From positions 2,311 through 66,310 of the forward strand of contig GG730040.1 in NCBI GenBank assembly GCA_002412065.1: a stretch of DNA of 64,000 nucleotides, written 5' to 3'. This document shows positions 1 through 64,000 of this stretch, piece by piece. Origin of the DNA: Candidatus Parvarchaeum acidiphilum ARMAN-4. GTDB lineage: Archaea > Nanobdellota > Nanobdellia > Parvarchaeales > Parvarchaeaceae. Numbering within the stretch: the first letter of the stretch is position 1; each line of letters opens with the position of its first letter. The notes below the pieces were generated by a model. It was not told where the DNA came from, made no database searches, and saw only the letters and a program-made list of their open reading frames with translations. The position numbers were made by a program, and so were the translations under genes.

Positions 1-1243
1 ATGCATCAAGTGCCCAGAATACCCTAGTTACCCTAAGTGTGTTTTGTGAAACTGGTTCAGATATATCCCCGCCTGGTGGAGATACTGCCCCTATTATTGT
101 TGCTGCGCCGATTTTTCCGCTTAATATCCTAGCTCTACCAGCCCTTTCATAAAATTCACCTACTCTTCTACCTAAATAAGCCGGGTAACCTTCTTCTCCA
201 GGCATCTCTTCCAATCTTCCAGATAATTCTCTTAAAGCTTCTGCCCATCTTGAGGTACTGTCTGCCATTACTGCAACACTGTAGCCCATATCTCTATAAT
301 ATTCAGCAAGTGTTATTCCTGTGTATATGCTTGCTTCTCTTGCAGCTACTGGCATATTTGAAGTGTTTGCAATAAGTATGGTTCTATCCATTAAAGGTTT
401 TCCACTCTTCGGGTCTTTTAACTCTGGGAATGTCGCAAGTATCTCTGTCATTTCATTTCCTCTCTCACCGCATCCTACATAAACTATAACATCTGCATCA
501 GACCATTTTGCAAGTTGGTGCTGGATTACGGTTTTTCCAGATCCGAACGGCCCTGGAACTGCTGCAGTCCCTCCCATTGCAACAGGAAACATTGTGTCTA
601 TCACTCTTTGTCCTGTTAAAAGAGGTATGTTTGGAGAAAGTTTCTCTTTTACTGGCCTTGCAGTTCTTACCGGCCATCTTGTCATAAGCTTGATTTCTTC
701 AGTTTTATTATTATCTTCTAATATTGCAATGTTTTCTTCTATTGTGTAGTCTCCTTCTTCTGCTATCTTTTTTATTACTCCTTTTTTGTTTGCAGGTACG
801 AGAACTTTATGTTTTATTAACGAAGTTTCTTTTACCTCTCCAATCTCCTCTCCAGGTTCAACAATTTTTCCTTCCTCAACTTTTGGTTTGAAATGCCATT
901 TCTTTTCTCTGTCTAATGAATTGACTTTTACTCCGCTGCTTATGAATGTTCCTTCTTTGTCAAGAATCTTATCTAGAGGCCTTTGTATACCATCAAATAT
1001 TGATCCTATCAATCCAGGCCCTAATTCTACAGAAAGAGGTTCATTACTATCAACTGCCTTTTCTCCTATCCTAAGTCCGCTTGTATCTTCATATACCTGT
1101 ATTATAGCGTTTTCACCCTCAATTTTTACAATCTCTCCAACTAGTTCATTGCCCCCTATAAATACAATATTATTCATCTTTGGGTCTTCAAGGCCTGAAA
1201 CCGTTACAACTGAACCAGAAATTCCTATTATTTTTCCTTCCAT
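1..1243 (-). CDS. atpA: A/V-type ATP synthase catalytic subunit A; start codon and N-terminal ~414 aa in window, CDS continues beyond the window start
   Basis: Reverse-strand translation starting at ATG 1243 gives [21 protein letters not shown]... with the P-loop GPFGSGKTV and conserved GERGNEM and [14 protein letters not shown] motifs of the A subunit. It is not in the ORF track because it has no stop inside the window. It sits directly downstream of atpF. Confidence 0.9.
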
Positions 1244-1244
1244 C

Positions 1245-1568
1245 TTATTTTAATTTTGTTATATCCACCCCTAATACTCTTTTTGCTAGGCTTTCTAGCG
1301 ACTCCTTATTTTCCTGTGTTTCCTGTGAAGGTATAAATAGCACCAGTGGGTCAACGCTTAAGTCCAATAAATTGCGTTCATTCTGGTCTGCATAATCTTT
1401 TATATCTTCTTCAGCTATTATAAGATTATATTCTTTGCTTTTTATTAATTTAATTACTTCTGTTAATGCCTCTTTTCCAGATAAATCAATAGAACTTTCA
1501 ATACCTGCAAGTTTTAATCCAAGTGAATCTCTTCTATCTCCTACAAAAATTATTCTTTTAAATTCCAT
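1245..1568 (-). CDS. atpF: A/V-type ATP synthase subunit F
   Basis: ORF 1245..1583. The likely true start is the internal Met ([23 protein letters not shown]), which matches the AtpF N-terminus and leaves only a short overlap with atpC. It is one nucleotide upstream of the atpA ATG. Confidence 0.75.
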
Positions 1569-4052: not shown

Positions 4053-6344
4053 ATGGAAGATGATGACAAAATGGAAATAAGTTTGAAGGTTGCAGAAGCA
4101 CAGCAAGATGATATAGGACAAAATTTTGTAAGGATAGGAACGCCTTGGATGAAGCAGATAGGTGTCAGGCCGGGGGAGTTTGTAGAAATCGAAGGGAATA
4201 GAAAGACCGTTGCAAAAGTTGATAGAGCGCATCCTGGTGATTTAGGTTTGAATATAATCAGAATGGATGGTACTACAAGAAAGAATGCAAAAGCGGCCAT
4301 AGGTGAAAATGTAATAGTCAGGAAAGTAGAGGTTTATGAAGCTGATGTACTCAACCTTTCTCCTTTCTCTTCAAAATCTATACGCGGTGCAGAAAATGTG
4401 GTGGGTAGGTTACTTTTAGATAGAGCAATATCGAAGGGAGATATAATAACGCTTGGCAGTGGAGGCAGAAGCTCATTTGCTTCGTTTTTTGGAGATGATA
4501 ATGACATAATGCGTATATTTGAGAATACAGCATTTCCGTCTTTCCAATTCGGTTTCTCAGAGCTTCGTTTTTTGGTTACTTCTACATCACCAAAAGGATT
4601 TGTGATAATAACAGAAAATACTGACATAAACATATCGCCTGAACCTGTTAAACTTTCTGAGGAATCAAGAGTCAAGCATGTAAGCTATGAAGATGTAGGA
4701 GGTTTATCAGATGAAGTTTCAAAGATAAGGGAAATGGTCGAAATGCCATTGAAACACCCTGAGATATTTATGAGGTTGGGGATAACCCCTCCAAGAGGCG
4801 TTTTGCTTTACGGGCCTCCAGGAACAGGTAAAACTTTGCTTGCAAGGGCGGTTGCAGATGAAAGCGAAGCGCATTTCATAACAATAAACGGCCCAGAAGT
4901 AATGAGCAAGTGGGTTGGCGACGCAGAAAAGAAATTAAGAGAGATATTTGATGATGCAGAAAAGAACGCTCCGTCTATTATATTTATAGACGAAATAGAT
5001 GCAATAGCAACAAAAAGAGAGGAAAGCATAGGGGAAGTTGAACATAGAGTCGTATCGCAGCTTCTCACATTAATGGACGGTTTGAGAAGTAGAGGAAAGG
5101 TAATTGTAATAGCTGCTACCAATAGACCAAATGCAATAGACCCAGCATTGCGTAGACCTGGAAGATTTGACAGGGAAATAATGTTTGGAGTTCCAAATGA
5201 AAAAGGAAGACTGGAAATACTAAACATACACACTAGAAACATGCCTCTTGACAAGAATGTTAAACTTGAAGAGATTTCAAAGATAACGCACGGTTTTGTC
5301 GGTGCAGATATAGAGTCGCTTATAAAAGAAGCAGCAATGAATGTAATAAGAAGAAATATAAATGAGTTAAATGTTAAGGAGGGCGATAACATACCAAAGA
5401 CAGTTCTTGAAAAGCTTATAGTAACGATGGATGACTTCAGGGAAGCATTAAGGTTTGTAAGACCAAGTGCAATGCGTGAAGTTTTAGTTGAAAGACCAAG
5501 TGTTGGATGGGCAGATGTTGGTGGCTTAGAACAAGTTAAGGCGCAACTTAAAGAAGCAATAGACTGGCCTTTAAAACATCCAGACTCATTCAGAAGGGTA
5601 GGAATAACCCCGCCAAAAGGGATATTGCTTTACGGGCCTCCAGGAACAGGTAAAACTTTGCTTGCAAGAGCAGTCGCACATGAAACTGAATCGAATTTCA
5701 TTGCAATAAAAGGACCGGAGATATACAATAAATATGTTGGTGAAAGCGAGAAAAGGATAAGAGAAATATTTGATAAGGCAAGGCAGGTTTCTCCATCTAT
5801 CATTTTTATAGATGAGTTGGACAGTATAGCTTCTTCCAGGTCTAACTATGAAGGAAATAATGCAACCGAACAAGTAGTTAATCAATTACTTACAGAGTTG
5901 GATGGAATAGAACCTCTTAATAATGTAATTGTAATTGGAGCTACAAATAGGGTTGATAAGGTGGACTCTGCTATACTAAGAACTGGCAGATTTGATAATA
6001 TTGTGTTTGTTCCTCCTCCAGATGAAGATGGAAGGAAAGACATACTTAAGGTATATCTAAATAAGATGCCTATAGAAGGAGATAAAGAAGCTCTTATCGA
6101 TTACCTTATCAAAAAAACTGAAGGATACGTTGGCTCTGACTTGGAGAGGCTTTCTAAAGAAGCAGGTATGAACGCGCTTAGAAATAGTATCTCTGCAAGT
6201 AAAGTAACGAAAGAAGACTTTGAAAAGGCATTGGATCTAGTAAGGCCAAGCTTGACCACTGAAGACGCAAAGAAATACGAAGAAATGGCAAAGAAACTTT
6301 ACAGTAAAAAAGAGAAGGCGAAGGAGCTTAATTACTTCGGTTGA
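4053..6344 (+). CDS. cdc48: AAA+ ATPase Cdc48/VCP-like (N domain plus two AAA modules)
   Basis: Two Walker A sites ([15 protein letters not shown] twice), Walker B DEID/DELD and second-region-of-homology motifs. The N-terminal double-psi barrel region is present ([23 protein letters not shown]). Confidence 0.95.
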
Positions 6345-9529: not shown

Positions 9530-12500
9530 ATGACTTATATAAAACAGGTAGAACTTGATAACTTTAAGTCCTTTGCAGGACATATAAAGTTTGATTTTGT
9601 AAACGGGTTCAACGCAATAGCTGGTGCAAATGGTTCAGGTAAAAGTAACTTAATTGATGCGCTTCTTTTTGTATTTGGAGGTTCCTCAAAAAAGGAGATG
9701 AGATCAGATATTCTTACAGATCTTATATTCAATGGAGGAAAAAATGGTAGGCAGGCAGAGCACGCCAAAGTCAATGTCATACTAGACAATTCAAAAAAAG
9801 AATTTCACGGAATTGAAGAAAATGAAGTTTCAATAAGCAGAAAGGTCGATAAAAACGGAAAAAGTGTTTACAGGGTAAATGGAAAGGCTTCTACCAGGGA
9901 AGAAGTCTTAAATGTATTATCTTTAGTAAAATTCAGGCAAGATGGATTTAACATAATCCCACAGGGAAGGATATTAGAAGTAGTTGGAACTTCTAATGAG
10001 GATAGGTTGAATCTTATAAATGATCTTTCCGGTATCAGTGTATTTGAAGATAAAAAAAGCAAAGCCATGAACGAAATGAGAAAAGTAGAGAGCAATATAT
10101 CAAAAATTGATACTGTTCTAAATGAAAAACGCAAATTAATGGCCCAACTAGAAAAAGACAAAACAAGAGCCATAGAATTTCAGCAGCTTAAAGAGAGGTA
10201 TTCGGCCCTACTTTCTAAGCAGTCAATGATAAAGAGAGATCTTGCATTTTCAGAGTTACAGTCTATACTTGAGCAACTCAAAGAAGCAGAGAAAGGAAAT
10301 GAAACACTAGCATCAGAAATTGAAAAGTTAAATGATCGTGTGAAAAAGATAAATGAAGAAATAAATGTTATAAACACAAAGGCCGAGGCAGAAGGAGAAA
10401 AAGAAATCCTTGATGCGGAAAACAAAGCAAAAGAATTTGATTCTGAGCTAGCCAGATTGAATGCGGTTCTTAAAAATGATAATGACCAATTGAATAATAT
10501 TATTACATCAATCGATGAATTATCAAAATCCCAAGAAGAGATTAAACAGCAGATAAAAACTGAAGAAAGCGAGAAAAAGAATCTAGAAGAAAAAATAGAT
10601 GCATTAAATTCAAAAAAGCTTCTCCTCATAGAAAGTGAATCGAAAACTCAGAATTATGTTAAAAATAGGAAGTATTAGAGAAGAAAATTTATGATATAGA
10701 TAAAAAAATATACGAGCAGAAAATTGCTCTGGCTAATTATCCAAAAATTGCAGAGATACAGGAGGCACTTACATCTTTTGATTCAAATAAAAATGAAATT
10801 GAGAAAACAATAAAGGAAATGACCTTATCATTTTCGGAGTTAAAGCCAGAAATTGACAAATTAAAAGCACAGGTAAAACGGGAAGCAGATGCAATATACC
10901 TACTCAGAGAGAATCTTTTTAATCAGAGGAATTCTTTGTCGTATCAGAACAAAGTAATTGAGATAGTTAATAGACTCAAAAAGGAAATAAATGGTATCTA
11001 TGGAACAGTCTCAGAGCTTTTCTCACTAAAAAATGAAGAGTACTCTATTCCAGTATTGAGATCAATAGGCAGGCGGTCAGAATTCATAGTTGTAGAAAAT
11101 GAAGAGGTAGCAAGGCAGTGTATAGATAAATTAAAATAAGACAAGCTGGGCTTTTACACATTTATACCTATAACTACAGTGAGAAGTAGTTATAACTTCA
11201 ATAAAATAGATGATACAAGAGTAATTGATTACATTATAAATCTTGTAAATTTCGAGCAAAATTTGCTTCGAGTAATGCAGTTTGTTTTTGGTGATACTAT
11301 ACTTGTAAGAGATTTTGATGCAGCAAAAGAACTTATAAGCAAATATAGGATGGTTTTACAGGACGGAACCGTGTTTGAGAGAACTGGGACTGTATCAGGA
11401 GGCCATTTCGATATACCAAATATCCTAAATGTTAATAAAAAGATAGCTGAGATAACTGCTGAGTTAGACACGCATTCAAAGCTAAAAGAAAAATACGATG
11501 AAGAAGTTATTGAGAAAGAATCAACTTTGAATTCTTTAATGACAGAAATTAAGGTAAGACAGAAAACTCTAGATGAAACAAAAATAAAAATTAATCAGCT
11601 TTTGAAAGAAAAATCAAAATTCACAGGCACAGAATCAGAAATTTCTGACAGCATAAGGGCTCTTGAAGGAGAAAAGACAAATTTAAGTTCAAAATTAGAA
11701 GAGCTTGAAAAAGACAAGCCAGAAAAAATAATAGACCACAAAAAAGAAATAGAAGCTTTGGATAGAGAAGTTAATGAGCTTCAGGTAAAGGTTGCTACTT
11801 CTGGCAACAAACTTTCTGCTGTTTTAATGTCAGAAATAAACAATCTTGAAAAAAGATTTTCGCAGCTTAATAAAGAAAGAGATAAATTTGAAAATGAAAT
11901 TGAAGAGGTACAAAATGCAATAAAAGATACTCAGGAAAACTATGATAAGGCTAGAAAAGAGCTTTCAGCTAGGTCAAATAATCTAAGCATGTTAAGAAAG
12001 AGGAGAAATGAGCTTTCAATTGAACTTGGAACGCTTCAAAAACAACATGACGATATATATAATCGCTCACAGAAGATAGTTTCAGATTTAAATGCTTTAA
12101 AGGTAAAAGAGGCCGGTTCAAAGGTTAAATTTGAAACCGCGGAAGAAGAATATAATAAGTATAAGGTTGATGGGGTAAAAATTGAGGAAGGAGAAACAAT
12201 TGAAAAAATAACAAAAGAGCTAAATCAATTAAACTCAAAGATAAATTCCTTTGGTCCTATAAATGAACTTGCGCTGAAAACATTTATGGAAACTCAGCAG
12301 CAATATGAGGAATTTAACGTAAAGCTAGAGAAATTAAATGAGGAAAAAGGAAGGATACTTGCAGTAATATCCGAGATAGAGCAGAAAAAATTAGAATCTT
12401 TTATGAAAACTTTATCGGATATAAACTCCATTTTTACAAAGGTTTTCAATTCAATTACAAAAGGAAAAGCAGAGCTTGTGCCAGAAGATCCTAATAATGT

Positions 12501-12855
12501 GTTTTCATCAGGTTTGGATATTGCGGTTGAGCTTCCAAATAAACGTGTAAGAAATATAAGAGGGTTAAGCGGAGGAGAACTTTCAGTGCTTGCTATATCT
12601 TTGATAATGGCATTGTCAAAATACACAGACGCAGTTTTCTATGTTCTAGATGAGGTGGATGCAGCTTTGGATGCTATCAATGCAGGAAATTTCTCTGCAC
12701 TTGTCAAGGCATATTCTGATTCATCACAGTTTATAATAATCTCTCACAATGAAACGACTCTTATAAATGCAGATGTAATATACGGTGTAACGATGAATGA
12801 CCAAGGGATAAGTAGGGTTGTACGTGTAAAAATGCCAGAGCAGAGCAATCAATAG
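9530..12855 (+). pseudogene. smc: SMC chromosome segregation ATPase disrupted into three ORFs (9530..10678, 10669/10819..11139, 11140/11179..12855) by a frameshift near 10660-10680 and an in-frame TAA at 11137-11139. May be an assembly error rather than a true pseudogene
   Basis: N-terminal head with Walker A GANGSGKSN. A hinge fragment ends ...ARQCIDKLK, then a TAA, then DKLGFYTFIPITT, which is the GRATFLPL-like hinge motif in the same frame. The C-terminal head has the signature LSGGELSVLAISLIMAL and Walker B FYVLDEVDAALD. The frame-1 reading is open from 10669 once the frame is shifted at the A5 run 10661-10665. Confidence 0.85.
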
Positions 12856-14608: not shown

Positions 14609-14654
14609 TATTAAACAATAAATGTAGCTTATATTTATTATATTTAGTTTTTAC

Positions 14655-14690: not shown

Positions 14691-14711
14691 GTAGAGTATT
14701 ATTTCAATAAT

Positions 14712-45972: not shown

Positions 45973-45973
45973 A

Positions 45974-49445: not shown

Positions 49446-49926
49446 TTATAGAAAGGCATATGTACTTTAATATATCATTATAAGCAGTTTGATTGTTTGC
49501 GAATCCGCCAACCTTATAGTACTTTCCATTAAATATGATCATCGGAACGCGGTTTATCCCTACCTGATTAAATATTGAAACTGCTGAATCTGGCAAGTTA
49601 TCAGTTGTATTGCTATTGTATGCAGATATATTAAATTTCCAAGCACAAAAATACCCACTGTAAAATGTATTGTTTCCCCATAAACCAAAAAGGGAAGTTA
49701 CATTTTGAAATGAATTCACAGTATCTGTGCAAGTTCTGCAATTATCAGCATAATAAATAATTAATGAAGGCTCATTCTGTGAGCATAGCCCTGACATGTT
49801 TAAGTTAGTTTCATGAAATGAATAAAAGTTGTTTAATGAATAAGTTTGGTAATAAAAGAATATCGCTATTATTAAAAGCACAACGATTATAACAGTATAC
49901 AAATAATATCTAAATCTAGTTAGCAT
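49420..49926 (-). CDS. membrane-anchored thioredoxin-fold protein with CxxC (extracytoplasmic thiol-disulfide oxidoreductase candidate)
   Basis: N-terminal TM (YLYTVIIVVLLIIAIFFYY), then LIIYYADNCRTCTD (CxxC) and RVPMIIFNGKYY (thioredoxin-fold cis-Pro region). Several N-x-S/T sequons. Confidence 0.6.
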   Translation of the reverse strand: MLTRFRYYLYTVIIVVLLIIAIFFYYQTYSLNNFYSFHETNLNMSGLCSQNEPSLIIYYADNCRTCTDTVNSFQNVTSLFGLWGNNTFYSGYFCAWKFNISAYNSNTTDNLPDSAVSIFNQVGINRVPMIIFNGKYYKVGGFANNQTAYNDILKYICLSINESMPQCS

Positions 49927-50215
49927 AAAATGAAATGTTTAATTTTTCTATTTCGTTTTGGCTGCAGCTGTTTCCTTTATTGACTATGCATATGTTAGTG
50001 TAATTGCCTAAATCCTTATAGACATAACTGTAGGCGGGGGATGAAAAATAAGAAGGATCAACTATAAGATTGAATATTTTTGAATAGCTACAGGAAGTTG
50101 CATTTATAAGTCTATAAACTTGAAATTGAAAAGGGCTGTATATCCCAGTTTCATTGTTATAATTGAAGATATGCCCGTTTCCCTTAAAAACAATGTTTAT
50201 AGTCATCTGTTTCAT
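49916..50215 (-). CDS. hypothetical small protein (99 aa), Cys- and N-sequon-containing
   Basis: ORF in the operon with flanking secreted proteins. No TM. Confidence 0.3.
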   Translation of the reverse strand: MKQMTINIVFKGNGHIFNYNNETGIYSPFQFQVYRLINATSCSYSKIFNLIVDPSYFSSPAYSYVYKDLGNYTNICIVNKGNSCSQNEIEKLNISFYAN

Positions 50216-50240
50216 TTTTAATAAGGAGTTTATTATATCA

Positions 50241-50811
50241 CTATAATTTGTGCTCCCTTTTGAATAAATTTAAGTCATATTTCAGTGGATTAACGATCGA
50301 ATAATTCTGTAATCCAGATGCGGCTATCTCAGAATAATATGCCTTCATCTGTGAATAAGTGATATTAAAAAGTTGTATTATCTCAGTAGAGTTAAGTTTA
50401 TTATCTATAAATTGGTAAAGCTGGCTTTCTGCAGCAGTGCAGTTTGTGTAATTTTCAACACTGCACATTGATACAAGAGAGATATCTCTTAATATATCGC
50501 TGTATTCTTTTTGTACTTCTGACGAATTTATGGGTATTGTCGGAGCAAGAGGTTCCATTTCATAAGTACACTCATTAAACGATTGAGTTGTTTGATAATC
50601 CCCCATAGAAATAGTATAAGTCTTTGTCCGATAGCATACTTAAATTTATATTGTAACTGGAAATAAAATCCCCAAGTTTTATGCTGTTTGAGAGATTTTG
50701 AGGCTTGTTTATAAAAGTCGGCTTAAAGGGGTAAACATACAATATTGCAGTAAAAGCTGCAAGTAATATAACCAATACAATTAGTACTTTTATTACGCCA
50801 TTACTTTCCAT
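50241..50811 (-). CDS. membrane-anchored small secreted protein, probably one gene split at a G5 run (50581-50585) into ORFs 50575..50811 and 50241..50606
   Basis: The upstream ORF gives a TM anchor (VIKVLIVLVILLAAFTAILYVY) ending ...YYFYGGLSNNSIV*. Removing one G fuses it to YQTTQSFNECTYEMEP..., a 4-Cys N-sequon-rich domain. Confidence 0.4.
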
Positions 50812-53177: not shown

Positions 53178-54113
53178 TCACACCTTAGCTACCTGTTTTT
53201 CTACCTCTTTAAATTTCAAGCCGTATAACTGAGTAGAACCATTTAATATCCAGACTGTAAAGTCATCAAATATAACTCCTATTATCAGTATTATTGCTAT
53301 TTCATGAAGAGTCGAATTAGTTGTTCCTAGGAACAGAATAAGAAATGTTACCAAAGCTGCAGCATCCATGGTAAGTGAAGTTTTTATGGTTTTAGCTAAA
53401 CGATAATGCATACTTGCTTCCTCTCTTTTCAATATGTTTGTTGCCAATATTATATTTCGATCTGCAGAATAACCCATTATCATAAGTATTCCTGCAATAG
53501 AAGCAGTTGAAAAGCTAAATCCTATAATGTCAAGAACCCCCACAATATTGATTACATCACTTATTATACTTATTACATTTGAAAATGCCTGCCACATGCT
53601 TCTAAAGTAGAAAAGAGAAACAGCTGCTACAAGCACGAATGCTATACCTAGCAATATCAAAGAGCTGTAAAGAGAGCTTTGAGCAAGCGTTGCACTTACA
53701 AAGTCTACGCTTGAATCTTTGCTGTTTACAGGTATTTTAAGTACGCTTGAAATGCTGTTTTCCAATAAAGTTGTATTTACATTCTTTCCAACGGTTATTG
53801 AATACCCTGTTATAGTATTTGTAAACGGCGCTTTTACGACGCTTACCGTGACGCTTTGTTTAAGATCTGTTCCCAAAGAGCTTGCTATCAGCGTAGGAGA
53901 AATACTTTGGTTTGTACTAATTACTATGTTTGTCCCTCCCGCTAGTGATATTCCTTCATTCACAATTTGGCCGTGAACATGGTAATAATAGCCTATAAAT
54001 GAAGCAAAAAATATAACGAAAATTATGGGTATAAATATCATTTTTCTATAGTTCTTAAGATAATATTCAACTACATTATCTATCGTTTTGCTCACCTCAT
54101 TTCTTATACCCAT
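53178..54113 (-). CDS. secF: protein-export membrane protein SecF
   Basis: 311 aa, N-terminal TM plus periplasmic domain, then a 5-TM bundle (GILMIMGYSADRNIIL). Confidence 0.75.
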   Translation of the reverse strand: MGIRNEVSKTIDNVVEYYLKNYRKMIFIPIIFVIFFASFIGYYYHVHGQIVNEGISLAGGTNIVISTNQSISPTLIASSLGTDLKQSVTVSVVKAPFTNTITGYSITVGKNVNTTLLENSISSVLKIPVNSKDSSVDFVSATLAQSSLYSSLILLGIAFVLVAAVSLFYFRSMWQAFSNVISIISDVINIVGVLDIIGFSFSTASIAGILMIMGYSADRNIILATNILKREEASMHYRLAKTIKTSLTMDAAALVTFLILFLGTTNSTLHEIAIILIIGVIFDDFTVWILNGSTQLYGLKFKEVEKQVAKV

Positions 54114-54178
54114 AAAGAATTTCTAAGCTCTGATTTTATTAATTCTTAATGTATTTGCGCTTTTAAAGGCTTTTTGTT

Positions 54179-54913
54179 CTATTTTTTAAAGTAGTATCCG
54201 TCATATAAAGCGTTGGCTTTTTCCTTGTCCTGTAGTGTGTAATACAACTGTAACATTACCCTTTTTAAAGGCTTTTTCCAGAGATTTTTTCCCTTTGTAA
54301 GATTGTAATCCAATAAAAATTCTTTATCATCATCATTTTTACAGTAGCTCCATATATTGTCTTTAAGCATGTAGATTTTGTATAATTCAACATCACCATT
54401 GTACTTTTTATCTTTCTCCTGTGTTATTGTCCTGCTTATAGCCCTTGCAACTTTATACCTTTCGTTCTCTGTCAAATGAGCAGCGTTTATCGAAAGAGAA
54501 AACCTTACCTCATCTAGGCCATTAAATATCTCATTTAGTTTAAATGAATTATATGCGTTTTCAACTATGTTTATTTTCTTTAGTATGTTCTTTTTTCTGT
54601 GTTTGAGTAACTCATCGGCCCTTGCTGTCTCCACCTCAATTATCTCACACACATTTTTGCCGTTATCGTTGTAAAGTAAAATAATGTCTGCGTTCCAACA
54701 ATCTATTCCGGGTTCCGTTAATAATTTTTTATTTTTGTAGTGTTTTCTTTCTTTATTATAAAGTCTCAATGGGTATTCTCCATCTGCATAATCTATATCT
54801 TTCTTTTTTTCGATATAAGAAAAAGTTGAAACCTGCATTAATTTATGGATTATAGAGGGATTTTGGTCTATAGTATTCGTTATCAGTAACTCTTCAAGTC
54901 CTCTCTTCCCCAC
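54179..54913 (-). CDS. hypothetical protein (244 aa, Lys/Tyr/Asn-rich)
   Basis: Clean ORF with no motif recognised. Confidence 0.4.
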   Translation of the reverse strand: MGKRGLEELLITNTIDQNPSIIHKLMQVSTFSYIEKKKDIDYADGEYPLRLYNKERKHYKNKKLLTEPGIDCWNADIILLYNDNGKNVCEIIEVETARADELLKHRKKNILKKINIVENAYNSFKLNEIFNGLDEVRFSLSINAAHLTENERYKVARAISRTITQEKDKKYNGDVELYKIYMLKDNIWSYCKNDDDKEFLLDYNLTKGKNLWKKPLKRVMLQLYYTLQDKEKANALYDGYYFKK

Positions 54914-54964
54914 ATGTAAAATAGACCATAAATAGTATAAATATCCTCTGCTTTTAATCTAAAT

Positions 54965-55618
54965 ATGAAAGGCCAGTTTTCATTTGAATTCATGATAGAT
55001 GTTGCATTTGTTTTAGTTCTAATAGCCTTCATAGCAGTTTTCTTTGCGCATATCTCCGCTGGAAATCCAACGGTTTCAGATATGAATGGGATTTGTTATG
55101 AGATGGCCGATTCAATAAATTCCATGGCAAACTCCAATGGTTTTCAAACTATACAGTACTTGCCGTTACTTACATTTACAAAACAGGAGAATTACACAAT
55201 AAACGTTTCAAATGGAATAATAATAATATATGAAAAGTCACTTTATGGAGGAAAATTACTTGCAGGGCAGGATTTAACTTCATGCGGTGCAGATACTGCG
55301 CTCACAGAAAATGAATCATTTGGTTTATCAAATCTTGTTTTGTATACAAACCAAACAAACATTGCATTGGCCTATGCTTATGCCAATTACTCCGGCAACC
55401 TCCCAAATTACATCTTTGTAGGCGGATTTACAGGTGCGGTTAATTTGTCATTGGACTATTCAAATGGTACTATCACTACATTAGATGTTCAGAATTCGCC
55501 ATTTACATACTTTGCAGATACAAAATCTATTCCATTACCGGCTGGTGTTTATAATTTTGTAGCAACTAGCGTGGCCTCTCCTGACATTTACGTCGATTTG
55601 CCTTTTTCAGTCGGTTAA
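54965..55618 (+). CDS. archaeal type IV pilin-like protein (class III signal peptide)
   Basis: MKG|QFSFEFMIDVAFVLVLIAFIAVFFAHI. The mature domain is Asn/Thr/Tyr-rich. Confidence 0.7.
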   Translation: MKGQFSFEFMIDVAFVLVLIAFIAVFFAHISAGNPTVSDMNGICYEMADSINSMANSNGFQTIQYLPLLTFTKQENYTINVSNGIIIIYEKSLYGGKLLAGQDLTSCGADTALTENESFGLSNLVLYTNQTNIALAYAYANYSGNLPNYIFVGGFTGAVNLSLDYSNGTITTLDVQNSPFTYFADTKSIPLPAGVYNFVATSVASPDIYVDLPFSVG

Positions 55619-55685
55619 TTTTATTTTTTTACTTTTTTAAAAGGTAAACATAAAGCTTAAATATGATTATTTTTTAATGTAACCT

Positions 55686-56162
55686 ATGGCAAAAGGACAG
55701 TCAGCATTAGAATACATGATGACTTATGGTTGGGCAATACTAATCATAGTTATCGTAGCTGTAATCTTGTATTCTATGGGAATTTTCAACCCTAGAGCAA
55801 GTGTAACTGCAACAAGTAGTGGGTTCAGCCCATTCGCAGCAAGTGCAGCAGTCTGCAGTAGCAGTAGTAGTAAATTAACAGTAGCTTTTACTGTTGGTGG
55901 ACTACCTAACGGAGCTTCTTCTGCAACCATAACTGGAGCAAGTTACTCGTCTGGAAGTGGAATTAGTCCGGCTATTAACTCTGGCACAGCAAGCCCAACG
56001 GTGGTGTCTTCTGGTAGCAGCTTTAATGTAACCTTCAGCACTGTAACATGTACACCAGGGGTTGGATTTAGTGCTTCTGGTGTAGTGAACTACTCCGTTA
56101 CAACAGCAGCAGGTACTGCAACTTACTCTGCAACAGGAACAATAGCAGGAACAGGCAGCTAA
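55686..56162 (+). CDS. archaeal type IV pilin-like protein (class III signal peptide), Ser/Thr/Ala/Gly-rich
   Basis: MAKG|QSALEYMMTYGWAILIIVIVAVILYS, then a low-complexity S/T/A/G domain. Confidence 0.7.
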   Translation: MAKGQSALEYMMTYGWAILIIVIVAVILYSMGIFNPRASVTATSSGFSPFAASAAVCSSSSSKLTVAFTVGGLPNGASSATITGASYSSGSGISPAINSGTASPTVVSSGSSFNVTFSTVTCTPGVGFSASGVVNYSVTTAAGTATYSATGTIAGTGS

Positions 56163-56169
56163 AAATGAT

Positions 56170-56205
56170 TTGATTTTTTATTTTTTTATTTAATTTTTAT
56201 TGCCT
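56170..56205 (+). terminator. T-rich tract after the pilin gene (candidate archaeal terminator)
   Basis: Begins 8 nt after the stop: gatttgattttttatttttttatttaatttttattg. Confidence 0.25.
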
Positions 56206-56224
56206 TGTTGATGTAACTGTTAAT

Positions 56225-56899
56225 CTAGTATTTTTGTTTTACACCGTACAGTATGCTTGTTTTAAAGTGGCTATCCAGTTTTTTCAAGTATTGTTCTGTT
56301 TTACTTTTAATTTTTCCCATGTTTTCAGAGGATAGCTTGAAATTGCTTATAGCATTAACAGGATCTCTTTTTTTCTTGTCGTTTATAGCTGAATTCGAAA
56401 AATAGCTAGAAAAGCTTTCTAAGGCCTCATTGACTTCATTTTTGTAAATAAAACTTGATATTGCGGTTATCCCTGCAATAGCTTCGATATAATTTTTTGA
56501 TTTAGATAATGCATACCTTGTGGCTTCAGATTCGGGGAAGGTTTTTGTAATGGAATAGTAATCTTTACTTATTTCAAGCAGTTTATAAAAATAATCGTTA
56601 ACGTTCTTATTTTTGTAGTTTATGCCGTGAGAATGGCCTAATTCATGATAAATTATAAATTTACAGCCTTCTTCTAATTCATTTAAATTCTTGTTTTCTA
56701 ATATAAAATACATCATGCGTTTCATTTTATTGGATATCCATATATTGTTATTTCCTAAAGAATACGCAATAGAATCACTGCAGTTTGGCAGCAAATTCCT
56801 GATAATTTTAAAGTCCTCCTCTATTCCAAGTTTTTTTGATATAAAATTACGATATTCCAAGTTATCTTTTAGCAAATTTGAAAGACTCTTGTTTTTCAT
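56225..56899 (-). CDS. hypothetical protein with HExxH zinc-metallopeptidase-like motif
   Basis: FIIYHELGHSHGINY contains HELGH. No signal peptide. Confidence 0.4.
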   Translation of the reverse strand: MKNKSLSNLLKDNLEYRNFISKKLGIEEDFKIIRNLLPNCSDSIAYSLGNNNIWISNKMKRMMYFILENKNLNELEEGCKFIIYHELGHSHGINYKNKNVNDYFYKLLEISKDYYSITKTFPESEATRYALSKSKNYIEAIAGITAISSFIYKNEVNEALESFSSYFSNSAINDKKKRDPVNAISNFKLSSENMGKIKSKTEQYLKKLDSHFKTSILYGVKQKY

Positions 56900-57171
56900 T
56901 TGTTTTTTAGATTTAAACTGGTATAAAAATGTTTATTTTGCAATTAGAACTAAAAAGAACTTAGTATATAATTTATAAAATACTAAATAGCTTTTATAAA
57001 AGGAGAAATAATTTACAGTTATTTTTATGCTTTTCCCGATGATAGTTATACTTCTGTTTGTTATTGAAATAATATTGATAATACTGCCTTTTTATAAATA
57101 ATGCTTTTTTTATTAAAATTCTTAATTAAATTTGGAAAAGTTTAATAAGAATGATTAGTTTTAGATAATTA
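56900..57171. promoter_or_regulatory. 272-nt AT-rich divergent intergenic region (candidate promoters for 56225..56899 and the HAD gene)
   Basis: Multiple TATA-like tracts (ttttataaa, tttataaata). No ORF. Confidence 0.25.
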
Positions 57172-57900
57172 ATGTTTACTACTAACAGAATAGATATCAA
57201 AGGAGTAGTGTTTGATTTTGATAACACTTTGGTTGATACAAAAACTACAATATATGAGGGTTATAAATTAGTTTTCTTTGAAATAGCTAAAAAATTTAAT
57301 ATAGATAAAGAAAGTTTAATTTCCTCTGCAAATCATTTTCAGGAAGAAAGAATCAAGGTATTAACAAGGTCTAAAGTCTCTTACGATCATGCAGAGTGGA
57401 TAAGTTTAATAGCAGAAAATGCAGGGATAAAATTAAATCAGGATGAAAATGAATATTACAAAAAGCTTTTTTATAATTATGTCTTGAATAATCAGAGATT
57501 CTCAAACAAAACAGATGAGCTTCTAACTCAACTTAAAAAAGAAGGGAAAAAATTAGCATTGTTGAGCGAAAAAGACTCAGTACCGGGTTTAAAGGCTGAA
57601 AGAATAAGCAAAGTGCCATTTCACAGTTATTTTGATTTAATAGTAATAGCAGGCGAAACAATTCCTTTTACAAAGTCAAAAGATGGTTCTAGGGTATTTA
57701 CAGAAACTGCAAAACTTTTGGGTTTAAATCCAAACGAGATAGTAATGGTGGGAGACAGGTTGGATTTAGACATACAAAACGCAAAGGAATCTGGAATGAA
57801 TGCAATTTTATTCACAGGCTACATAAAATCAGAGGAAAAAAGTAAATATAAACCAGATTTTGTAGTAGATAATCTGTTAAATCTAAGTAGTATTATATAA
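57172..57900 (+). CDS. HAD-superfamily hydrolase (paralogue of 25322..25975)
   Basis: IKGVVFDFDNTLVDT and MVGDRLDLDIQNAKESGMNAILF. Confidence 0.8.
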   Translation: MFTTNRIDIKGVVFDFDNTLVDTKTTIYEGYKLVFFEIAKKFNIDKESLISSANHFQEERIKVLTRSKVSYDHAEWISLIAENAGIKLNQDENEYYKKLFYNYVLNNQRFSNKTDELLTQLKKEGKKLALLSEKDSVPGLKAERISKVPFHSYFDLIVIAGETIPFTKSKDGSRVFTETAKLLGLNPNEIVMVGDRLDLDIQNAKESGMNAILFTGYIKSEEKSKYKPDFVVDNLLNLSSII

Positions 57901-57939
57901 TTTATTATATAATATTCAATAATTTGAAAATCTGGACTT

Positions 57940-58929
57940 TTAAAGCATTATTATGATTCTTCCGCTCTTTTCTTTGTTGTTGATCTCTTTGAATGCTTCC
58001 TTTGCTTCCTGAAAATTGAATTTTTTCCAAGTTTTTACTTTTAGGTCTCCTGATTTATTTACTACCTCAGAAAATTGCTTGATTGAACCTCCAGTTGAGC
58101 CCAATATGCTTAGCTGTTTGCTATAAAGCTGCGAAATATCTATCTGTGCATTACTCCCAGTTTCTGTTCCGAATGTAACCATTCTTCCATTTTTACCTAA
58201 AAGGGAATAACCCAAATCCCATAATTTCGTACCTATAGAATCAATCACTACATCTACCATTTTTGAATCTGTTATCTTTTTTACTTCTTCTAATGCGTTT
58301 TCGTATCCAACTACGTAATCAGCACCAAAATCTTTAACCCAATCCTTACTTGAAATTGCAATTGTCTTTGCACCAAACATTTTAGCAAATTGAAGTGCAA
58401 ATATTCCCGTATTACCAGAAGCTCCAACTACAGCGATAAATTCATCTTTTCTAATATTAGCCCTATTTAATGCATTGTAAGACGTAAGAGCAGCTACTGG
58501 CAAGCTAGCAGCTAATTCAAAACTTGTAGAATCTGGTATCTTAAAAGCATTCTTTTGATTTATTACTGCGTATTCTGTTAAGCCGCCATTAGATCCAATG
58601 CTAAATATATATCCATTATCGCAAAGCATTTCCTCTCCGCTTAAGCAATAATGGCACGTTCCATCAAAATATCTATTATAAACGCTTACCCTATCTCCTT
58701 TTTTGAGTGCCTTTACTTCTTCTCCAACCTCTTCTATTTCTCCTGCAAATTCCGCTCCAGGGATTATTTCAGATTTTACTGGTATCAAATCAATTACCAT
58801 TGAGTCAATGGGGTTTAGTCCAATTGCCTTTACCTTTACAAGGACTTCATCATGTTTTAATTTTGGTCTGTTTATTTCCTTTAAATTTAAGTTGTCTATT
58901 CCGTTTTTGCTTAAAACCCATGCTTTCAT
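57940..58929 (-). CDS. zinc-dependent medium-chain dehydrogenase/reductase (alcohol dehydrogenase-like)
   Basis: GAEFAGEIEEVGEEVKALKKGDRV, CHYC...C structural-zinc-like Cys cluster, and Rossmann AVVGASGNTGIFALQFAK. Confidence 0.8.
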   Translation of the reverse strand: MKAWVLSKNGIDNLNLKEINRPKLKHDEVLVKVKAIGLNPIDSMVIDLIPVKSEIIPGAEFAGEIEEVGEEVKALKKGDRVSVYNRYFDGTCHYCLSGEEMLCDNGYIFSIGSNGGLTEYAVINQKNAFKIPDSTSFELAASLPVAALTSYNALNRANIRKDEFIAVVGASGNTGIFALQFAKMFGAKTIAISSKDWVKDFGADYVVGYENALEEVKKITDSKMVDVVIDSIGTKLWDLGYSLLGKNGRMVTFGTETGSNAQIDISQLYSKQLSILGSTGGSIKQFSEVVNKSGDLKVKTWKKFNFQEAKEAFKEINNKEKSGRIIIML

Positions 58930-59076
58930 ATCGTATAAGATATATTTGATAATATAAAAACTTTTTAGTTTAAGACTTATTATAGTCTTTACAAGGAAGG
59001 CTTATTTTAGTTATAATAACTACAATTAAGTGGCTTTTAATTTAATTATATATACTACCTATAATCTTAAAGTAAG

Positions 59077-60840
59077 ATGAAACTTGAAGAAACTCTTTCA
59101 AATGAGGATTACTTAAAAAATGTTATTCATAAAGTGAGTATTTTAGGTCCAGACATAATACCTACAATAGAAAATACCGTTTCAAAATATAATGGATATG
59201 CAGCTAAGTCAGTTGCTTTCAGTTTGCTAAATCTTGCTTATTACAAAAAAGATAAGGACATAACCTTAGAGATATTGCACACTATTGACAATTATAGCGG
59301 AGTTGTAGGAGAATATATGCTAGATCATATTGTCCGTTTCGCAAATATTATCCAAGATAAAAATACAATAATAAATTTTGCTAGAATAATGTCGCTTAAA
59401 AAGGTAGTAAATACGCTAAATATGTATAAGAGCAATGCTTCTGAAATCATCGTTTGGAATTCTTTAAAACTGGCTAAAGACATGGTTTTATACAAATCAG
59501 AAGTTAGTAATCTAAACTATAATTTAAGTGATCCGACATTGCAAGCCTTTAATTTTAATAACTTTATTGATATAATGTCAGATCAAACTATAGTTGATAC
59601 TATTGAAAAATATAAAGGAGAAAATATAAAAGAAGTTGCAAAAGAATTAGTAAAAATTGCTTTTAGGACTAGATCTACTGGAGCGGTTATTGCTGCTTGT
59701 AATATAGCAAAAACTGTGGGGTTGAATGCTTTTGAATTTCTTTCATCACGCGATTTTATCACTATATCTGAGGAAGGATTAGATAAACTTATTAATGACA
59801 CAAAAAGTTTTGATTCTGTATTGCCTTATCTAAAATCTAATGGTGAACTTCCAAAGCCTACTAAGTACAATATAAATAAATACCAGGACATAGCTAATGA
59901 ATACCTTTCAAGTTCTTATAACATAAATAAAAAACTTAATTTAAATCAGATACTTATGCTGTTTTCAGTTAATGATCATGATAGAAAAGATGTAATAAAT
60001 CTTGTGAATAACTCAATAGAAACAAACTCAAAACTTTATTCTTTAGTTAGTGGGGGGGATCCAAAATTGGATATAGATAAAGAAAAATTGTCATATCTAT
60101 TGTTGATAGCAGTAACTGGCTCAAGGGACAAAAATATAGAGCAAGAAGCTTTTAATTTTCTTTCTAAAATAGTTGGAGAGAGCGTTGTTAGAAAAGCTAA
60201 GCATTCTTTTAATTCTCAATATAAAGCAAAATTAATTGGTGATATCTCAAATTATGTTAAGAATGGAGATGTAAACAGCGCAATAAACCTGTTAAAAGAT
60301 ACTAAAGATGAAAGTATAAACGATATTTTATCTGTAGCAGGGTATAAAGACGGAGATTTAATTATTGCCGGGAAAAATACTGTCTTGTCTACGCAAAGCA
60401 ACAATCCATTAGATTACGACAGCAGATTACAAATTGCATGTGTTTATCTTCCAAGTGATTATGAAGGAGGCATAGAAGCATACTGTAAAGACAAAAGGTT
60501 TAATCTCATAAGATATGATATAAACGGTAAAAGTTTAGGCAGCGCAATTTGTTACCTTGAAAATGGAGTTTTTCTTGTTGACTCTGTAGAAGGACATAGG
60601 ACATTTCGAAAACCTAATGTATTCTCTATAGTTTATCAAGATTTAATAGATAGAGCTAAAGAGAACAGGGCAAAACAGATTATATTCAACACAACAGGCA
60701 GAAATGAAACCCCTCAAGAATTTATAAATTACGTTAAAAAAATAAATTTTAATAAAGGCAATACAAAAATGAACTTAAATACCAATGGTAACCTAGAAGC
60801 AAAAAGGTCTTTTGTATCCGGTTATATTGTAAACTTATAA
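59077..60840 (+). CDS. large hypothetical protein (587 aa)
   Basis: Clean ORF, Asn/Lys/Ile-rich, with no motif recognised. Confidence 0.45.
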   Translation: MKLEETLSNEDYLKNVIHKVSILGPDIIPTIENTVSKYNGYAAKSVAFSLLNLAYYKKDKDITLEILHTIDNYSGVVGEYMLDHIVRFANIIQDKNTIINFARIMSLKKVVNTLNMYKSNASEIIVWNSLKLAKDMVLYKSEVSNLNYNLSDPTLQAFNFNNFIDIMSDQTIVDTIEKYKGENIKEVAKELVKIAFRTRSTGAVIAACNIAKTVGLNAFEFLSSRDFITISEEGLDKLINDTKSFDSVLPYLKSNGELPKPTKYNINKYQDIANEYLSSSYNINKKLNLNQILMLFSVNDHDRKDVINLVNNSIETNSKLYSLVSGGDPKLDIDKEKLSYLLLIAVTGSRDKNIEQEAFNFLSKIVGESVVRKAKHSFNSQYKAKLIGDISNYVKNGDVNSAINLLKDTKDESINDILSVAGYKDGDLIIAGKNTVLSTQSNNPLDYDSRLQIACVYLPSDYEGGIEAYCKDKRFNLIRYDINGKSLGSAICYLENGVFLVDSVEGHRTFRKPNVFSIVYQDLIDRAKENRAKQIIFNTTGRNETPQEFINYVKKINFNKGNTKMNLNTNGNLEAKRSFVSGYIVNL

Positions 60841-61079: not shown

Positions 61080-61133
61080 ATACCTCATTTAAAAACTATT
61101 TAAACATTTAAAGTTTGGTGCGTTTAAATAAGT

Positions 61134-62354
61134 ATGCCAAATGTTACATTTTATTTTGAAGTACACCAGCCTTACAGACTAAAAAGAGTATATTCCTTTA
61201 TAGAGAACAAGGAATTTATAGACCTGGACAAAAACACGGAAATATTCAGCAAGGTTGCAGATAAGTGCTATATACCAATGACCAAATTGCTTATAGATCT
61301 TGTAAAGGAATACCAAGAATTTAAGGTAAGTTTTTCCTTGACAGGGGTGTTTATGGAGCAGGCAGAGACATTCAAGCCGGAAGTAATTCAGCTTTTTCAG
61401 CAGTTATTTGATACAGGAAATATGGAATTGCTAGATGAAACCTATTATCATTCTCTTTCGTCTCTAATAAGCAAAGATGAGTTCATAGAGCAAGTAAAGC
61501 AGCACAAATCGTTGATGTATAAATATTTTAAATTTCACCCCAAAGTTTTTAGAAATACAGAAGCTATGTATTCAAATGAAATCGCTGACACAGTTTCAAA
61601 GATGGGCTACAAAGGAATAATCTCAGAGGGCTGGGATAGAGTACTGGGTTGGCGTTCTCCAAACTATGTATATACCGATCCAACAGAAAAAATAAAAGTC
61701 CTTATGAGAAATTACAAGTTGAGTGATGATATTGCTTTTAGGTTTTCAACCCCAACTTGGAATGAATTTCCTTTAACAGGTGAGAAATATTCAAATTGGA
61801 TTGCAAACAATGAAGGTGAGACAATAAATCTATTTATGGACTATGAAACTTTCGGGGAGCATCAATGGAAAGAAACTGGCATATTTGATTTTATGAAAGA
61901 TCTGCCCGGCAAGCTTATAAGTAAGGGAATAGGTTTCAGTACTGTATCAGAAGCTATAAAACAAAAAGCAGTAGGGGTGGTTGACGTTCCATATTATCTC
62001 TCTTGGGCAGATATGGATAGAGATTTGTCAGCATGGCTAGGGAATCAAATGCAGGATGCTGCTTTCCAGAAACTCAAATCTATGGAGAAAGAGGTTATGC
62101 TTACTGGGAGTGAAGAATTGATAAAGAGATGGAGACTACTGCAAACATCCGATAACTTTTATTATATGTGCACAAAATGGTTTTCTGATGGAGATATCCA
62201 CAAATATTTTAATGCTTATTCCTCTCCTTACGTTGCTTATTTAAATTATATGAATATAATCTCACAGCTTGATTCAATGGTTAAAACCTTTTTAAAGCTG
62301 CATCATAAGCCTGGAGATAAACCGGAAGAAATTTTTCCCAACCAAATTGATTAG
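61134..62354 (+). CDS. glycoside hydrolase family 57-like alpha-glucan-active enzyme
   Basis: N-terminal VTFYFEVHQPYRL resembles the GH57 motif. Adjacent to a glycogen synthase gene. Confidence 0.55.
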   Translation: MPNVTFYFEVHQPYRLKRVYSFIENKEFIDLDKNTEIFSKVADKCYIPMTKLLIDLVKEYQEFKVSFSLTGVFMEQAETFKPEVIQLFQQLFDTGNMELLDETYYHSLSSLISKDEFIEQVKQHKSLMYKYFKFHPKVFRNTEAMYSNEIADTVSKMGYKGIISEGWDRVLGWRSPNYVYTDPTEKIKVLMRNYKLSDDIAFRFSTPTWNEFPLTGEKYSNWIANNEGETINLFMDYETFGEHQWKETGIFDFMKDLPGKLISKGIGFSTVSEAIKQKAVGVVDVPYYLSWADMDRDLSAWLGNQMQDAAFQKLKSMEKEVMLTGSEELIKRWRLLQTSDNFYYMCTKWFSDGDIHKYFNAYSSPYVAYLNYMNIISQLDSMVKTFLKLHHKPGDKPEEIFPNQID

Positions 62355-64000
62355 CTAGATCATTTGCCGAAATTTTCAATTTAAGTAGATCATCTTCACT
62401 CATAAGCGCTATTTTTATCATGTCTTCTGCTATATTTGTAATAACTGCGTCTCTTTTCTTGCCAAGCATGTTTTCAACGAAAACACCTTTGTATCCTTTC
62501 CCATAATCTTTTAGTAAATATTGTCCGAATCCACTGAAATCAGAGGTAAATGAAATTGACATGTAAGCTGCGGCCTCTAAAGGAGTATATCCAAAGGGTT
62601 CGTATTTTGACAAGAAAAAGCCTGCAGTTGAAAGTGCTAGCATCTCATAATAAGTCAGATTTAAAAGTTCATCACCTACTGCAAGGTATTTTGGATAGAA
62701 TATAACTTTTACATGGTTTTCTGCTGAGTTTTCAAGTTTATTTTCGTGTAGTTTGTTTAGTATTGCATCATTATTTTCAGGATATGACAGTATAAAAGGA
62801 GTAAGTGGTGGATTTGTAGGCTTAGGTCTTCTAAGCTGCTTAATAAGCCTTTTTGAATCATTTATAATCTTGCTGTAGGCTTTGTCAACTGTATCTTCTT
62901 CAACTTCAACCGAAGACGATATTACTGAATCAAAGTTTTTTACATCTTCATCTAATGCAGATTTTGCGCTTACGTAAGTAAGGTAGTTTGCGACTACATC
63001 ATTTCTCACGCCGATAGTACCGGAAGGAACCGCTATAAGCGCTATTACATAATTGCCATCTGTCATCATTTTATCAAGTTTTCCTAGGGCATCTATAAAA
63101 ACATCATATCCTTTGTCATAAAATTCATACCTACCGCTAGTTACAAAGACTTTTAGATTGCTAGGGTTAATGTCATAATAAGGAAGGAAATAGGCATTAA
63201 CAAAATTATCAAGTTTCTTCTTAGCATTAACTCTCATAGAAGTCAGTTCTTCAGCCTTTGGTAAATCAGATGTATCTATTCCATTTATTGTTACAAAATC
63301 CGGCTTCTTCCCAAGTATTACACTAGCTTCTTTGGAAACTACGCTACTTACTGCTGTGAATATTGTTGCATTGAATGCCCCTGCTTTTTCAGTGAAATGT
63401 TTTGCTGCTACCCCATATTTGTAAGGCATATCTGGAGTTATTCCAGTATTAGAAATAACATAAACATTCGTGTTTCCCCCAGAATATGAGATAGCTCTCC
63501 CTAGAACAGTGGCATGAACAGTAAATACTGTGGGTACTTTAACATTTTTATATTTTAGATAAAGTATTGAACCGGCTGAAAGCCATTCATGTACCTGTAC
63601 AACTAAAGGCTGCTTAATAGTTTTGCTCAATGCTTCTATCACTGTTCCTGCTGCATATGACCATGCCAATGGTTCATTGTAATCCGATGGTGAATTTAAA
63701 GAGTCAATTTTGAAATTGTCCCAAAAGTCCTTTTTTACTTCATTTAAATGCTTGTTTTCAAATTCCTTTGCGTCGATTAATATCAAGTTTACATCATTTG
63801 CAGAAGACCATTTTCCAAAGTACATTTTAACCCATCAATTTTTATATTTCCCACGGCATCTTTTATGTATTGCGGAGGAGGGCTTTCTATGAATTCTACT
63901 GCGGCTTGATTTGGGTTGTAAAAACCTATTGCTAAATAATTTTCTCCAAATTGTTTTTTGATATATGCCGATTTTGAGGTTAAAACAGTCCATATTCCAC
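62281..64000 (-). pseudogene. glycogen(starch) synthase-like GT-B glycosyltransferase (GT3-like). N-terminal exon-like part is in another frame upstream of 63825 (frameshift at a T/A4 run 63825-63828) and continues past the window end
   Basis: The ORF 62281..63825 starts MYFGKWSSANDVNLILIDAKEF...HEWLSAGSILYLK...TVHATVLGR. The +1 frame upstream reads ...GIWTVLTSKSAYIKKQFGENYLAIGFYNPNQAAVEF...NIKIDGLK, the GGIYTVLKSKAP-type N-terminus, with no stop up to position 64000. Adding one A restores ...DGLKMYFGKW. Confidence 0.7.

Follow-up and report, generated by a model that had tools for sequence, protein, structure and literature searches.

Conserved proteins encoded in more than one open reading frame (ORF) have been described in several systems. 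Genuine split genes, as in the DPANN archaea Nanoarchaeum equitans and ARMAN, lie at separate loci with starts of their own, and their split is conserved across the lineage, while the pseudogenes of reduced or host-dependent genomes, such as those of Mycobacterium leprae and recent endosymbionts, carry frameshifts and premature stops. Sequencing can also break ORFs, through the homopolymer errors of 454, Ion Torrent and nanopore platforms or the consensus errors of low-coverage Sanger drafts. Here, we analysed a stretch of 64,000 nucleotides (nt), hereafter the window, from Candidatus Parvarchaeum acidiphilum ARMAN-4, in which seven genes, including those for SMC, RNase Z, ribosomal protein L35Ae and glycogen synthase, are interrupted. 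The lesions are very likely consensus-error artefacts of an ~8x Sanger draft, and not the outcome of gene decay, recoding or stop-codon reassignment.

The window belongs to an 89,508-bp scaffold of the ARMAN-4 draft (GenBank ADCE01). It has a GC content of 33% and harbours ~80 closely spaced archaeal genes. ARMAN-4 is listed as a 0.81-Mb composite genome with ~8x coverage from a 'UBA filtrate' sample (PMC2745766). The methods of that study include ~3-kb clones, Sanger sequencing and phred/phrap/consed, and its workflow figure shows multiple displacement amplification (MDA). An initial annotation, made from the letters of the window alone, had thus correctly surmised a low-coverage, metagenome-derived source. 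By exact look-up in a collection of 15 billion proteins, the products of the window ORFs were found to be exact matches to deposited ARMAN-4 proteins. Each deposited fragment protein occurs on one contig only, whereas up to 37 contigs carry the intact forms, and none of the lesion alleles was found on any other contig of that collection. The frameshifts are unreported in the papers mentioning ARMAN-4, in a search that did not include the ARMAN genome paper of Baker et al. 2010.

Interrupted genes and their conspecific counterparts

For comparison, we used 28 conspecific contig segments identified by exact-protein look-up, which are 99.2-99.9% identical to the window and jointly span all of its 64 kb. 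They stem from Logan SRR5036985 and SRR33270657, ~10 ENA MEGAHIT assemblies, four JGI metagenomes and six NCBI metagenome-assembled genomes (MAGs). Lesions were located by six-frame translation and then by alignment to the conspecific contigs. Nine gene-breaking lesions were identified in seven of the ~80 genes, namely six one-base insertions or deletions (indels) and three AAA codons changed to TAA nonsense codons. There is approximately one broken gene per 9 kb, a density that the initial annotation, with one per 10 kb, had slightly understated; in most conspecific assemblies it is zero. The genes for SMC, an SPFH protein, a HAD hydrolase, RNase Z, L35Ae, glycogen synthase and a hypothetical protein of 297 amino acids (aa) are single ORFs in all segments except those of one MAG, the N-padded GCA_002505075.1, whose genes break at other sites than the window lesions. 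Furthermore, the SMC, SPFH and RNase Z genes are single-frame in at least 11 other Parvarchaeum species. The cross-species controls were 29 Parvarchaeota loci collected by a nuoL contig scan (best match 88%).

Eight segments from six assemblies differ from the window at window-private sites, i.e. at sites where only the window deviates, and show zero or one other difference over 7-20 kb. They are L081, L096 and L092 of Logan SRR5036985, L104 of JGI 3300030242, L087 and L090 of JGI 3300038731 and 3300030082, and L088 and L093 of the NCBI MAGs GCA_002503995.1 and GCA_002503305.1. Other strains of the species have 30-150 differing sites over equal spans. Because those eight segments differ at window-private sites only, the ARMAN-4 genotype has been re-assembled elsewhere without any lesion. 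None of the conspecific contigs, identical genotypes included, carries any of the lesions. Polishing had been proposed in the initial annotation as a way to tell artefact from pseudogenisation; the same-genotype assemblies serve as such a check, and they remove all lesions, which speaks for an artefact and refutes real pseudogenisation. Judging from the conspecific DNA, all seven genes are intact in the organism itself.

The SMC gene (9530-12855, plus strand) codes for 1108 aa when intact and is cut into three ORFs in the window. The fragments 9530-10678 and 10669-11139 lie around a frameshift, and a TAA follows at 11137-11139. The first fragment, which ends with TAG, was deposited as a 382-aa SMC domain protein (EEZ93177.1). 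At the frameshift (10666-10667, plus strand), one A is missing, turning AA into A (consensus AAAAATAAGG, window AAAAATAGG), and the extra A is present in six of six conspecifics. The in-frame TAA in the SMC hinge (plus strand) results from an A-to-T change inside an A7 run; the codon is AAA (Lys) in all conspecifics. The intact gene is a single 1108-aa ORF with PF02463 and PF06470 in P0001 and in L103, L104, L106 and L107. A search with the reconstructed SMC protein retrieved full-length proteins of 1106-1108 aa in every relative (Candidatus Parvarchaeum/Parvarchaeota), that of P0001 being 99% identical. In the coiled-coil part of the gene (12164-12275), the window has 11 substitutions in 110 nt relative to strain L001, far denser than elsewhere, and this looks like a recombination tract between strains.

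The SPFH/band-7 gene (24334-25265, plus strand; 310 aa when intact) appears as the ORFs 24334-24600 and 24537-25265, and it was deposited as two coding DNA sequences (CDSs) of 88 aa (EEZ93194.1) and 216 aa (EEZ93195.1). One A is missing at 24586-24587 on the plus strand, again turning AA into A (consensus GAGGAATAC, window GAGGATAC), at a site located between a T6 and an A6 run and inside neither. The motif FFEEEYKK is found there in six of six conspecifics and in six other Parvarchaeum species. The HAD hydrolase gene (25262-25975, minus strand; 237 aa when intact) has a premature stop at 25322-25324 (minus strand), where AAA has become TAA and the last 20 codons are lost, and it was deposited as the 217-aa EEZ93196.1. 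Base 25324 is T in the consensus of six of six conspecifics and A in the window.

The RNase Z gene rnz (27554-28467, plus strand; 304 aa when intact) is divided into the ORFs 27554-27808 and 27658-28467 by the loss of one A from an A4 run at 27790-27791, plus strand (ATGAAAAGC to ATGAAAGC). The intact protein scores 254 bits against NF000801, for a cut-off of 252. The gene adjoins that of a 342-aa GTPase of the GTP_EFTU family (28535-29563); ARMAN-4 is mentioned in a paper dealing with SelB-like elongation factors of archaea (PMC3037878). The L35Ae gene (36915-37166, minus strand; 83 aa when intact) was deposited as the 59-aa EEZ93208.1. Its in-frame TAA (36987-36989) replaces a codon that is AAA in eight of eight conspecifics and belongs to a patch at 36987-37011 (minus strand) with three private substitutions (36989, 37003 and 37011), the other two being 14 and 22 nt away.

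The gene for the 297-aa hypothetical protein (49916-50811, minus strand), which has no Pfam or NCBIfam hit, is represented by ORFs of 99, 121 and 78 aa. It carries two error patches on the minus strand, one at 50255-50258 with one inserted base and two substitutions (consensus GCT-GTTTTTG, window GCTCCCTTTTG), and the other at 50566-50577 with one inserted base and four substitutions (consensus AATTACAACCA-AAAACG, window AAGTACACTCATTAAACG). A run of five G had been flagged in the initial annotation as a candidate frameshift site. It corresponds to a run of five C (50600-50604) located where two ORFs of this gene overlap; the gene is indeed broken, but the run is unchanged, and the two patches are responsible.

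The glycogen synthase gene glgA (PF05693; 62281-64000, minus strand) codes for 589 aa when intact and starts ~49 nt past the end of the window. In the window it is split into the ORFs 63789-64000 and 62281-63825 (minus strand), and it was deposited as the 514-aa EEZ93243.1. The patch at 63823-63830 (minus strand) combines one deletion with two substitutions (consensus GTAAATTTTTACCCCATC, window GTACATTTTAACCCATC), and the deletion can be read as T5 to T4 or as C4 to C3. This gene (62281 to ~64049, minus strand) and the convergent GH57 gene (61134-62354, plus strand) overlap by 74 nt (62281-62354). Because the overlap is the same in all conspecific gene calls, it is a real trait of this compact genome.

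The frameshifts that split the SMC, SPFH, rnz and glycogen synthase genes and the in-frame TAA codons of SMC and L35Ae had been spotted in the initial annotation, and all were confirmed here. The second frameshift of the 297-aa gene and the third AAA-to-TAA change, at 25322-25324, had escaped it.

Such errors are not unique to the ARMAN-4 record. GCA_002505075.1 (L082/L089/L105, contig DAUI01000006.1, aligned to window positions 1148-64000) has NN-padded patches and broken genes of its own, with SMC in four ORFs, RNase Z in 222 + 55 aa, a glycosyltransferase in 155 + 227 aa and an ADH in 91 + 228 aa. In GCA_027316865.1 (L091), a 1-nt deletion (C3 to C2) at window position 52766 splits secD into 378 + 124 aa, and a more distant Parvarchaeota MAG (L023, DAHXLI010000001.1, 2732-6047) shows a frame change at SMC residue 110. 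In L094, a conspecific contig, the GH57 gene lacks 6 nt in frame (window 62035-62040); unlike the frame-breaking indels of the window, this deletion looks like a natural, frame-preserving indel.

Spectrum and clustering of the window-private differences

All conspecific contigs were piled onto the window, with at least four comparators over ~62 kb. Differences found in the window only were taken as private, and sites where the window allele is common to at least one other assembly were taken as polymorphisms (447 sites). Over the ~62 kb, the private set consists of 47 substitutions and seven one-base indels, ~0.9 per kb. They affect 25 ORFs in all, among which are cdc48, TFB, nuo genes and the gene for L35Ae; cdc48 and TFB carry private missense changes, and exact look-ups with their products gave no contigs. 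One of the indels, an extra A at position 3453 in an intergenic spacer, belongs to the same error class and has no coding effect.

The private substitutions have a spectrum of their own. The transition:transversion ratio is 11:36 among them and 364:83 among the shared polymorphisms (Fisher p = 1e-15). Nonsynonymous, stop and synonymous changes amount to 29:4:12 in the private set and to 115:1:318 in the polymorphisms; with nonsynonymous and stop changes taken together against synonymous ones, the counts are 33:12 and 116:318, respectively (Fisher p = 1e-9). The private changes fall on first, second and third codon positions 9, 19 and 17 times, while 71% of the polymorphisms are at third positions. 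At neutral sites (4-fold degenerate and intergenic), the transition:transversion ratio is 131:36 (3.6) versus 11:36 (0.31) in the private set (p = 7e-12). The private spectrum is thus not due to relaxed selection, since the ratio at neutral sites differs from it.

Uniform random replacement of bases would be expected to yield 74% nonsynonymous, 5% stop and 21% synonymous changes, and 64%, 9% and 27% were found (chi-square p = 0.28). The fraction of transitions was likewise compared with one-third (p = 0.17), and the changes at A:T sites are distributed 16, 12 and 9 over the three alternative bases. The private substitutions of this coding sequence agree with a uniform random replacement of bases, and the spectrum is noise-like. 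For every other assembly, examined as a control, transitions and synonymous changes abound among the private differences. As is the case for consensus errors, the variants of the window occur in a single assembly and show no preference for a codon position or a type of substitution.

The private differences are also strongly clustered. A neighbour at 30 nt or less was found for 29 of 56 of them, when 2.9 were expected and the maximum in 2000 simulations was 14. They form patches of two to five errors within 30 nt at most, in which substitutions and indels are mixed. Examples are four substitutions in 26 nt inside cdc48 (4350-4375, plus strand), a gene that stays open, and the five changes in 12 nt at 50566-50577; a patch of four private substitutions is also present in nuoJ (18514-18569, plus strand). 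This clumping points to stretches of poor base-calling, and not to independent mutations. The density of private differences varies along the window: two long stretches, 37012-44423 and 53962-59325, have none, and the regions 16-37 kb and 48-51 kb are dense, which would fit an uneven read depth.

Homopolymers had been given in the initial annotation as the site of most lesions, a claim that did not hold. No private indel was found in any of the 221 runs of at least 6 nt, and at most one in the 659 runs of at least 5 nt. The private indels are located within messy patches or at short runs (1, 2, 2, 4 and 4-5 nt); an AA pair is affected by the deletions in SMC and SPFH and an A4 run by that in rnz, and the glgA deletion belongs to a patch. 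Substitutions outnumber indels by approximately seven to one.

Possible origins of the lesions

The draft is a composite consensus of ~8x coverage, built in a phred/phrap Sanger shotgun study from the Iron Mountain 'UBA filtrate' sample. Most likely, the patches arose where one or two read stretches of poor quality supported the consensus. The errors are random and therefore struck genes in proportion to the coding density; six indels shifted frames and three A-to-T errors made AAA into TAA, after which gene callers gave truncated or split CDSs in seven genes. The pattern of errors matches the Sanger chemistry of the study and not a run-length-sensitive platform. We infer that the physical cause is poor base-calling at low local coverage rather than damage during amplification or cloning.

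Several points weigh against this explanation. Window positions 14049-16128 are covered by one comparator only. The independence of the comparators from the original Sanger reads was assumed from their sources and contig naming. The site, date and platform of the matching assemblies are unconfirmed, and the literature search yielded no origin for SRR5036985 or the JGI metagenomes. The proposed link of the error patches to low-quality or low-coverage stretches has indirect support, namely the mean coverage of ~8x for the filtrate sample, the MDA in the workflow figure (PMC2745766) and the patchy clustering. Lastly, four of the six frame-breaking indels are losses of an A on the plus strand, a mild regularity that a purely random model does not predict.

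It is improbable that the lesions are physical but non-biological mutations, introduced by MDA of an acid-damaged template or by cloning. MDA does appear in the workflow of the study that lists the ARMAN-4 assembly (PMC2745766), and transversions at A:T sites dominate the spectrum. However, under the 'A-rule', abasic sites would be expected to give changes to T and not the 16 A-to-C changes observed, and patches of three to five changes in ~15 nt, indels included, resemble poor trace stretches. Polymerase and cloning errors are, moreover, rarer than 1e-3 by orders of magnitude. Damage with a mutT-like or depurination spectrum was also considered and rejected, the changes at A:T sites being spread over all three alternatives. 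Whether amplification or cloning damage or base-calling error is at work, the lesions are not features of the organism.

A homopolymer-prone platform of the 454, Ion Torrent or nanopore type, miscalling base runs, was the mechanism favoured in the initial annotation. In line with it, every indel is a single base, rnz has gone from A4 to A3, glgA possibly from T5 to T4, and the TAA of SMC lies inside an A7 run. The long runs are devoid of private indels, however, substitutions predominate, the SMC and SPFH deletions merely shorten AA to A, and the patches combine several substitutions with an indel. In addition, the study that lists the assembly used Sanger sequencing of ~3-kb clones (PMC2745766). 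Platform error of the homopolymer type, with its indels concentrated in long runs, was therefore rejected; we consider this mechanism largely refuted and its chances quite small.

There is a slim chance that a minority of the lesion alleles are real low-frequency variants. They might, for instance, come from single clones of dying or defective cells that the <0.45-um filtrate had enriched, and have been frozen into the composite consensus. In that case, the draft would not be affected by base-calling noise alone but would partly record the mutational load of a population of ultrasmall cells.

Real gene decay, also raised in the initial annotation, would imply that the sequenced ARMAN-4 lineage, or rare defective cells that passed through the 0.45-um filter, really had the frameshifts and nonsense codons in their DNA. 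DPANN archaea do have reduced genomes, the presence of two lesions in the SMC gene is what a dead gene would be expected to show, and a composite of single reads can catch rare alleles. Against this, the identical genotype is found elsewhere without any lesion, no lesion allele is on record on another contig of the 15-billion-protein collection, and the private changes lack the transition bias of the population's neutral sites. They are also spread over 25 ORFs, essential ones among them, and occur in tight multi-change patches. Decay was thus rejected as a very improbable source of the lesions.

Recoding, by programmed -1 frameshifting with TAA readthrough or by stop-codon reassignment, has a vanishingly small probability: although the four frameshifts of the initial annotation all need the same shift, the window being 1 nt short, and the frames are open and conserved on either side of each lesion, it is refuted by the conspecific DNA, which has the extra base or AAA at the lesion sites, and furthermore no -1 slippery heptamer was found at the SMC or SPFH junctions, the two frameshifts of the 297-aa gene would have to be corrected in the other direction, and TAA genuinely terminates most of the long ORFs (43 of the 64, with 11 TAG and 10 TGA). 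The initial annotation had itself dismissed stop-codon reassignment on the basis of normally terminated genes, quoting the stops of atpF (TAA), cdc48 (TGA) and the first SMC fragment (TAG) correctly, and every conspecific has AAA in place of each of the three in-frame TAA codons. A rescue by transcriptional slippage at poly(A) tracts was rejected as well, with the lesions outside long tracts and the DNA of the same genotype intact.

Other features, curation and comparison with known systems

The gene content of the window includes V-type ATPase subunits, cdc48, ScpA/B and SMC, the ribosomal proteins L2, S19, L22 and S3, and nuoJKLMN. It also includes band-7/SPFH, TatD, RNase Z, aIF5B, TFB, Trm1 and L35Ae, as well as a Hef-like helicase, SecDF, many pilin-like proteins, the GH57 enzyme and glycogen synthase. 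Between 40120 and 40795, four tiny ORFs (67, 56, 49 and 53 aa) follow one another in a row, and a single hydrophobic helix is predicted for each. The gene calls of most conspecific contigs include them, with no family hits on record. Two regions (42927-47444 and 54965-56162) harbour clusters of secreted proteins rich in Cys, Ser, Thr and Asn together with pilin-like proteins. The N-termini encoded in these clusters resemble archaeal class III signal peptides, e.g. MAKGQSALEYMMTYGWAILII, and the proteins have no family hits on record in the conspecific calls.

These analyses bring no new biology, and their practical value is that of a curation warning. ARMAN-4 (ADCE01) is a long-standing and widely used Parvarchaeota/DPANN reference for phylogenomics, gene presence/absence tables and UniProt. 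In 64 kb, seven of ~80 genes were deposited truncated or split, including those for SMC, RNase Z, L35Ae and glycogen synthase, and ~18 further ORFs contain spurious substitutions, most of which change amino acids. If ~0.9 differences per kb are typical, several hundred bases could be wrong in the 0.8-Mb draft, and roughly 100 CDSs could be broken. This would slightly inflate gene counts and 'small gene' statistics, and genes would be falsely called 'absent' or 'partial'. Statements on presence or absence, gene length or pseudogenes that rest on ARMAN-4 alone need to be checked against newer conspecific assemblies. The comparison of private differences with population polymorphism, in terms of transition:transversion ratio, nonsynonymous:synonymous ratio and clustering, provides a reusable test of error versus decay for cases in which conspecific assemblies exist but reads do not.

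Compared with known systems, the window resembles the split genes of Nanoarchaeum equitans and ARMAN in that it belongs to a DPANN lineage and its proteins are encoded as more than one ORF. Unlike genuine split genes, however, the fragments are adjacent, overlap in alternative frames, have no starts of their own and are fused in relatives. A split-gene interpretation was rejected, as no start codon is present past the junctions and the genes are single ORFs in all relatives. As in the pseudogenes of Mycobacterium leprae and recent endosymbionts, frameshifts or premature stops affect ~9% of the window genes; in contrast with such decay, the lesions are absent from the same genotype, the spectrum is noise-like rather than transition-biased, and essential genes are struck as often as others. 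The homopolymer errors of 454, Ion Torrent and nanopore sequencing similarly break ORFs of AT-rich genomes by single-base indels, but in the window most errors are substitutions and the indels avoid long runs, all 221 runs of at least 6 nt being clean. The closest likeness is to the consensus errors of low-coverage Sanger drafts, which consist of isolated one-base indels and substitutions at ~1 per kb, in short patches and at random codon positions, with split or truncated CDSs that are gone on re-sequencing. Nothing material sets the window apart from such drafts, except that the many re-assemblies of the same genotype allow its error set to be exactly defined.

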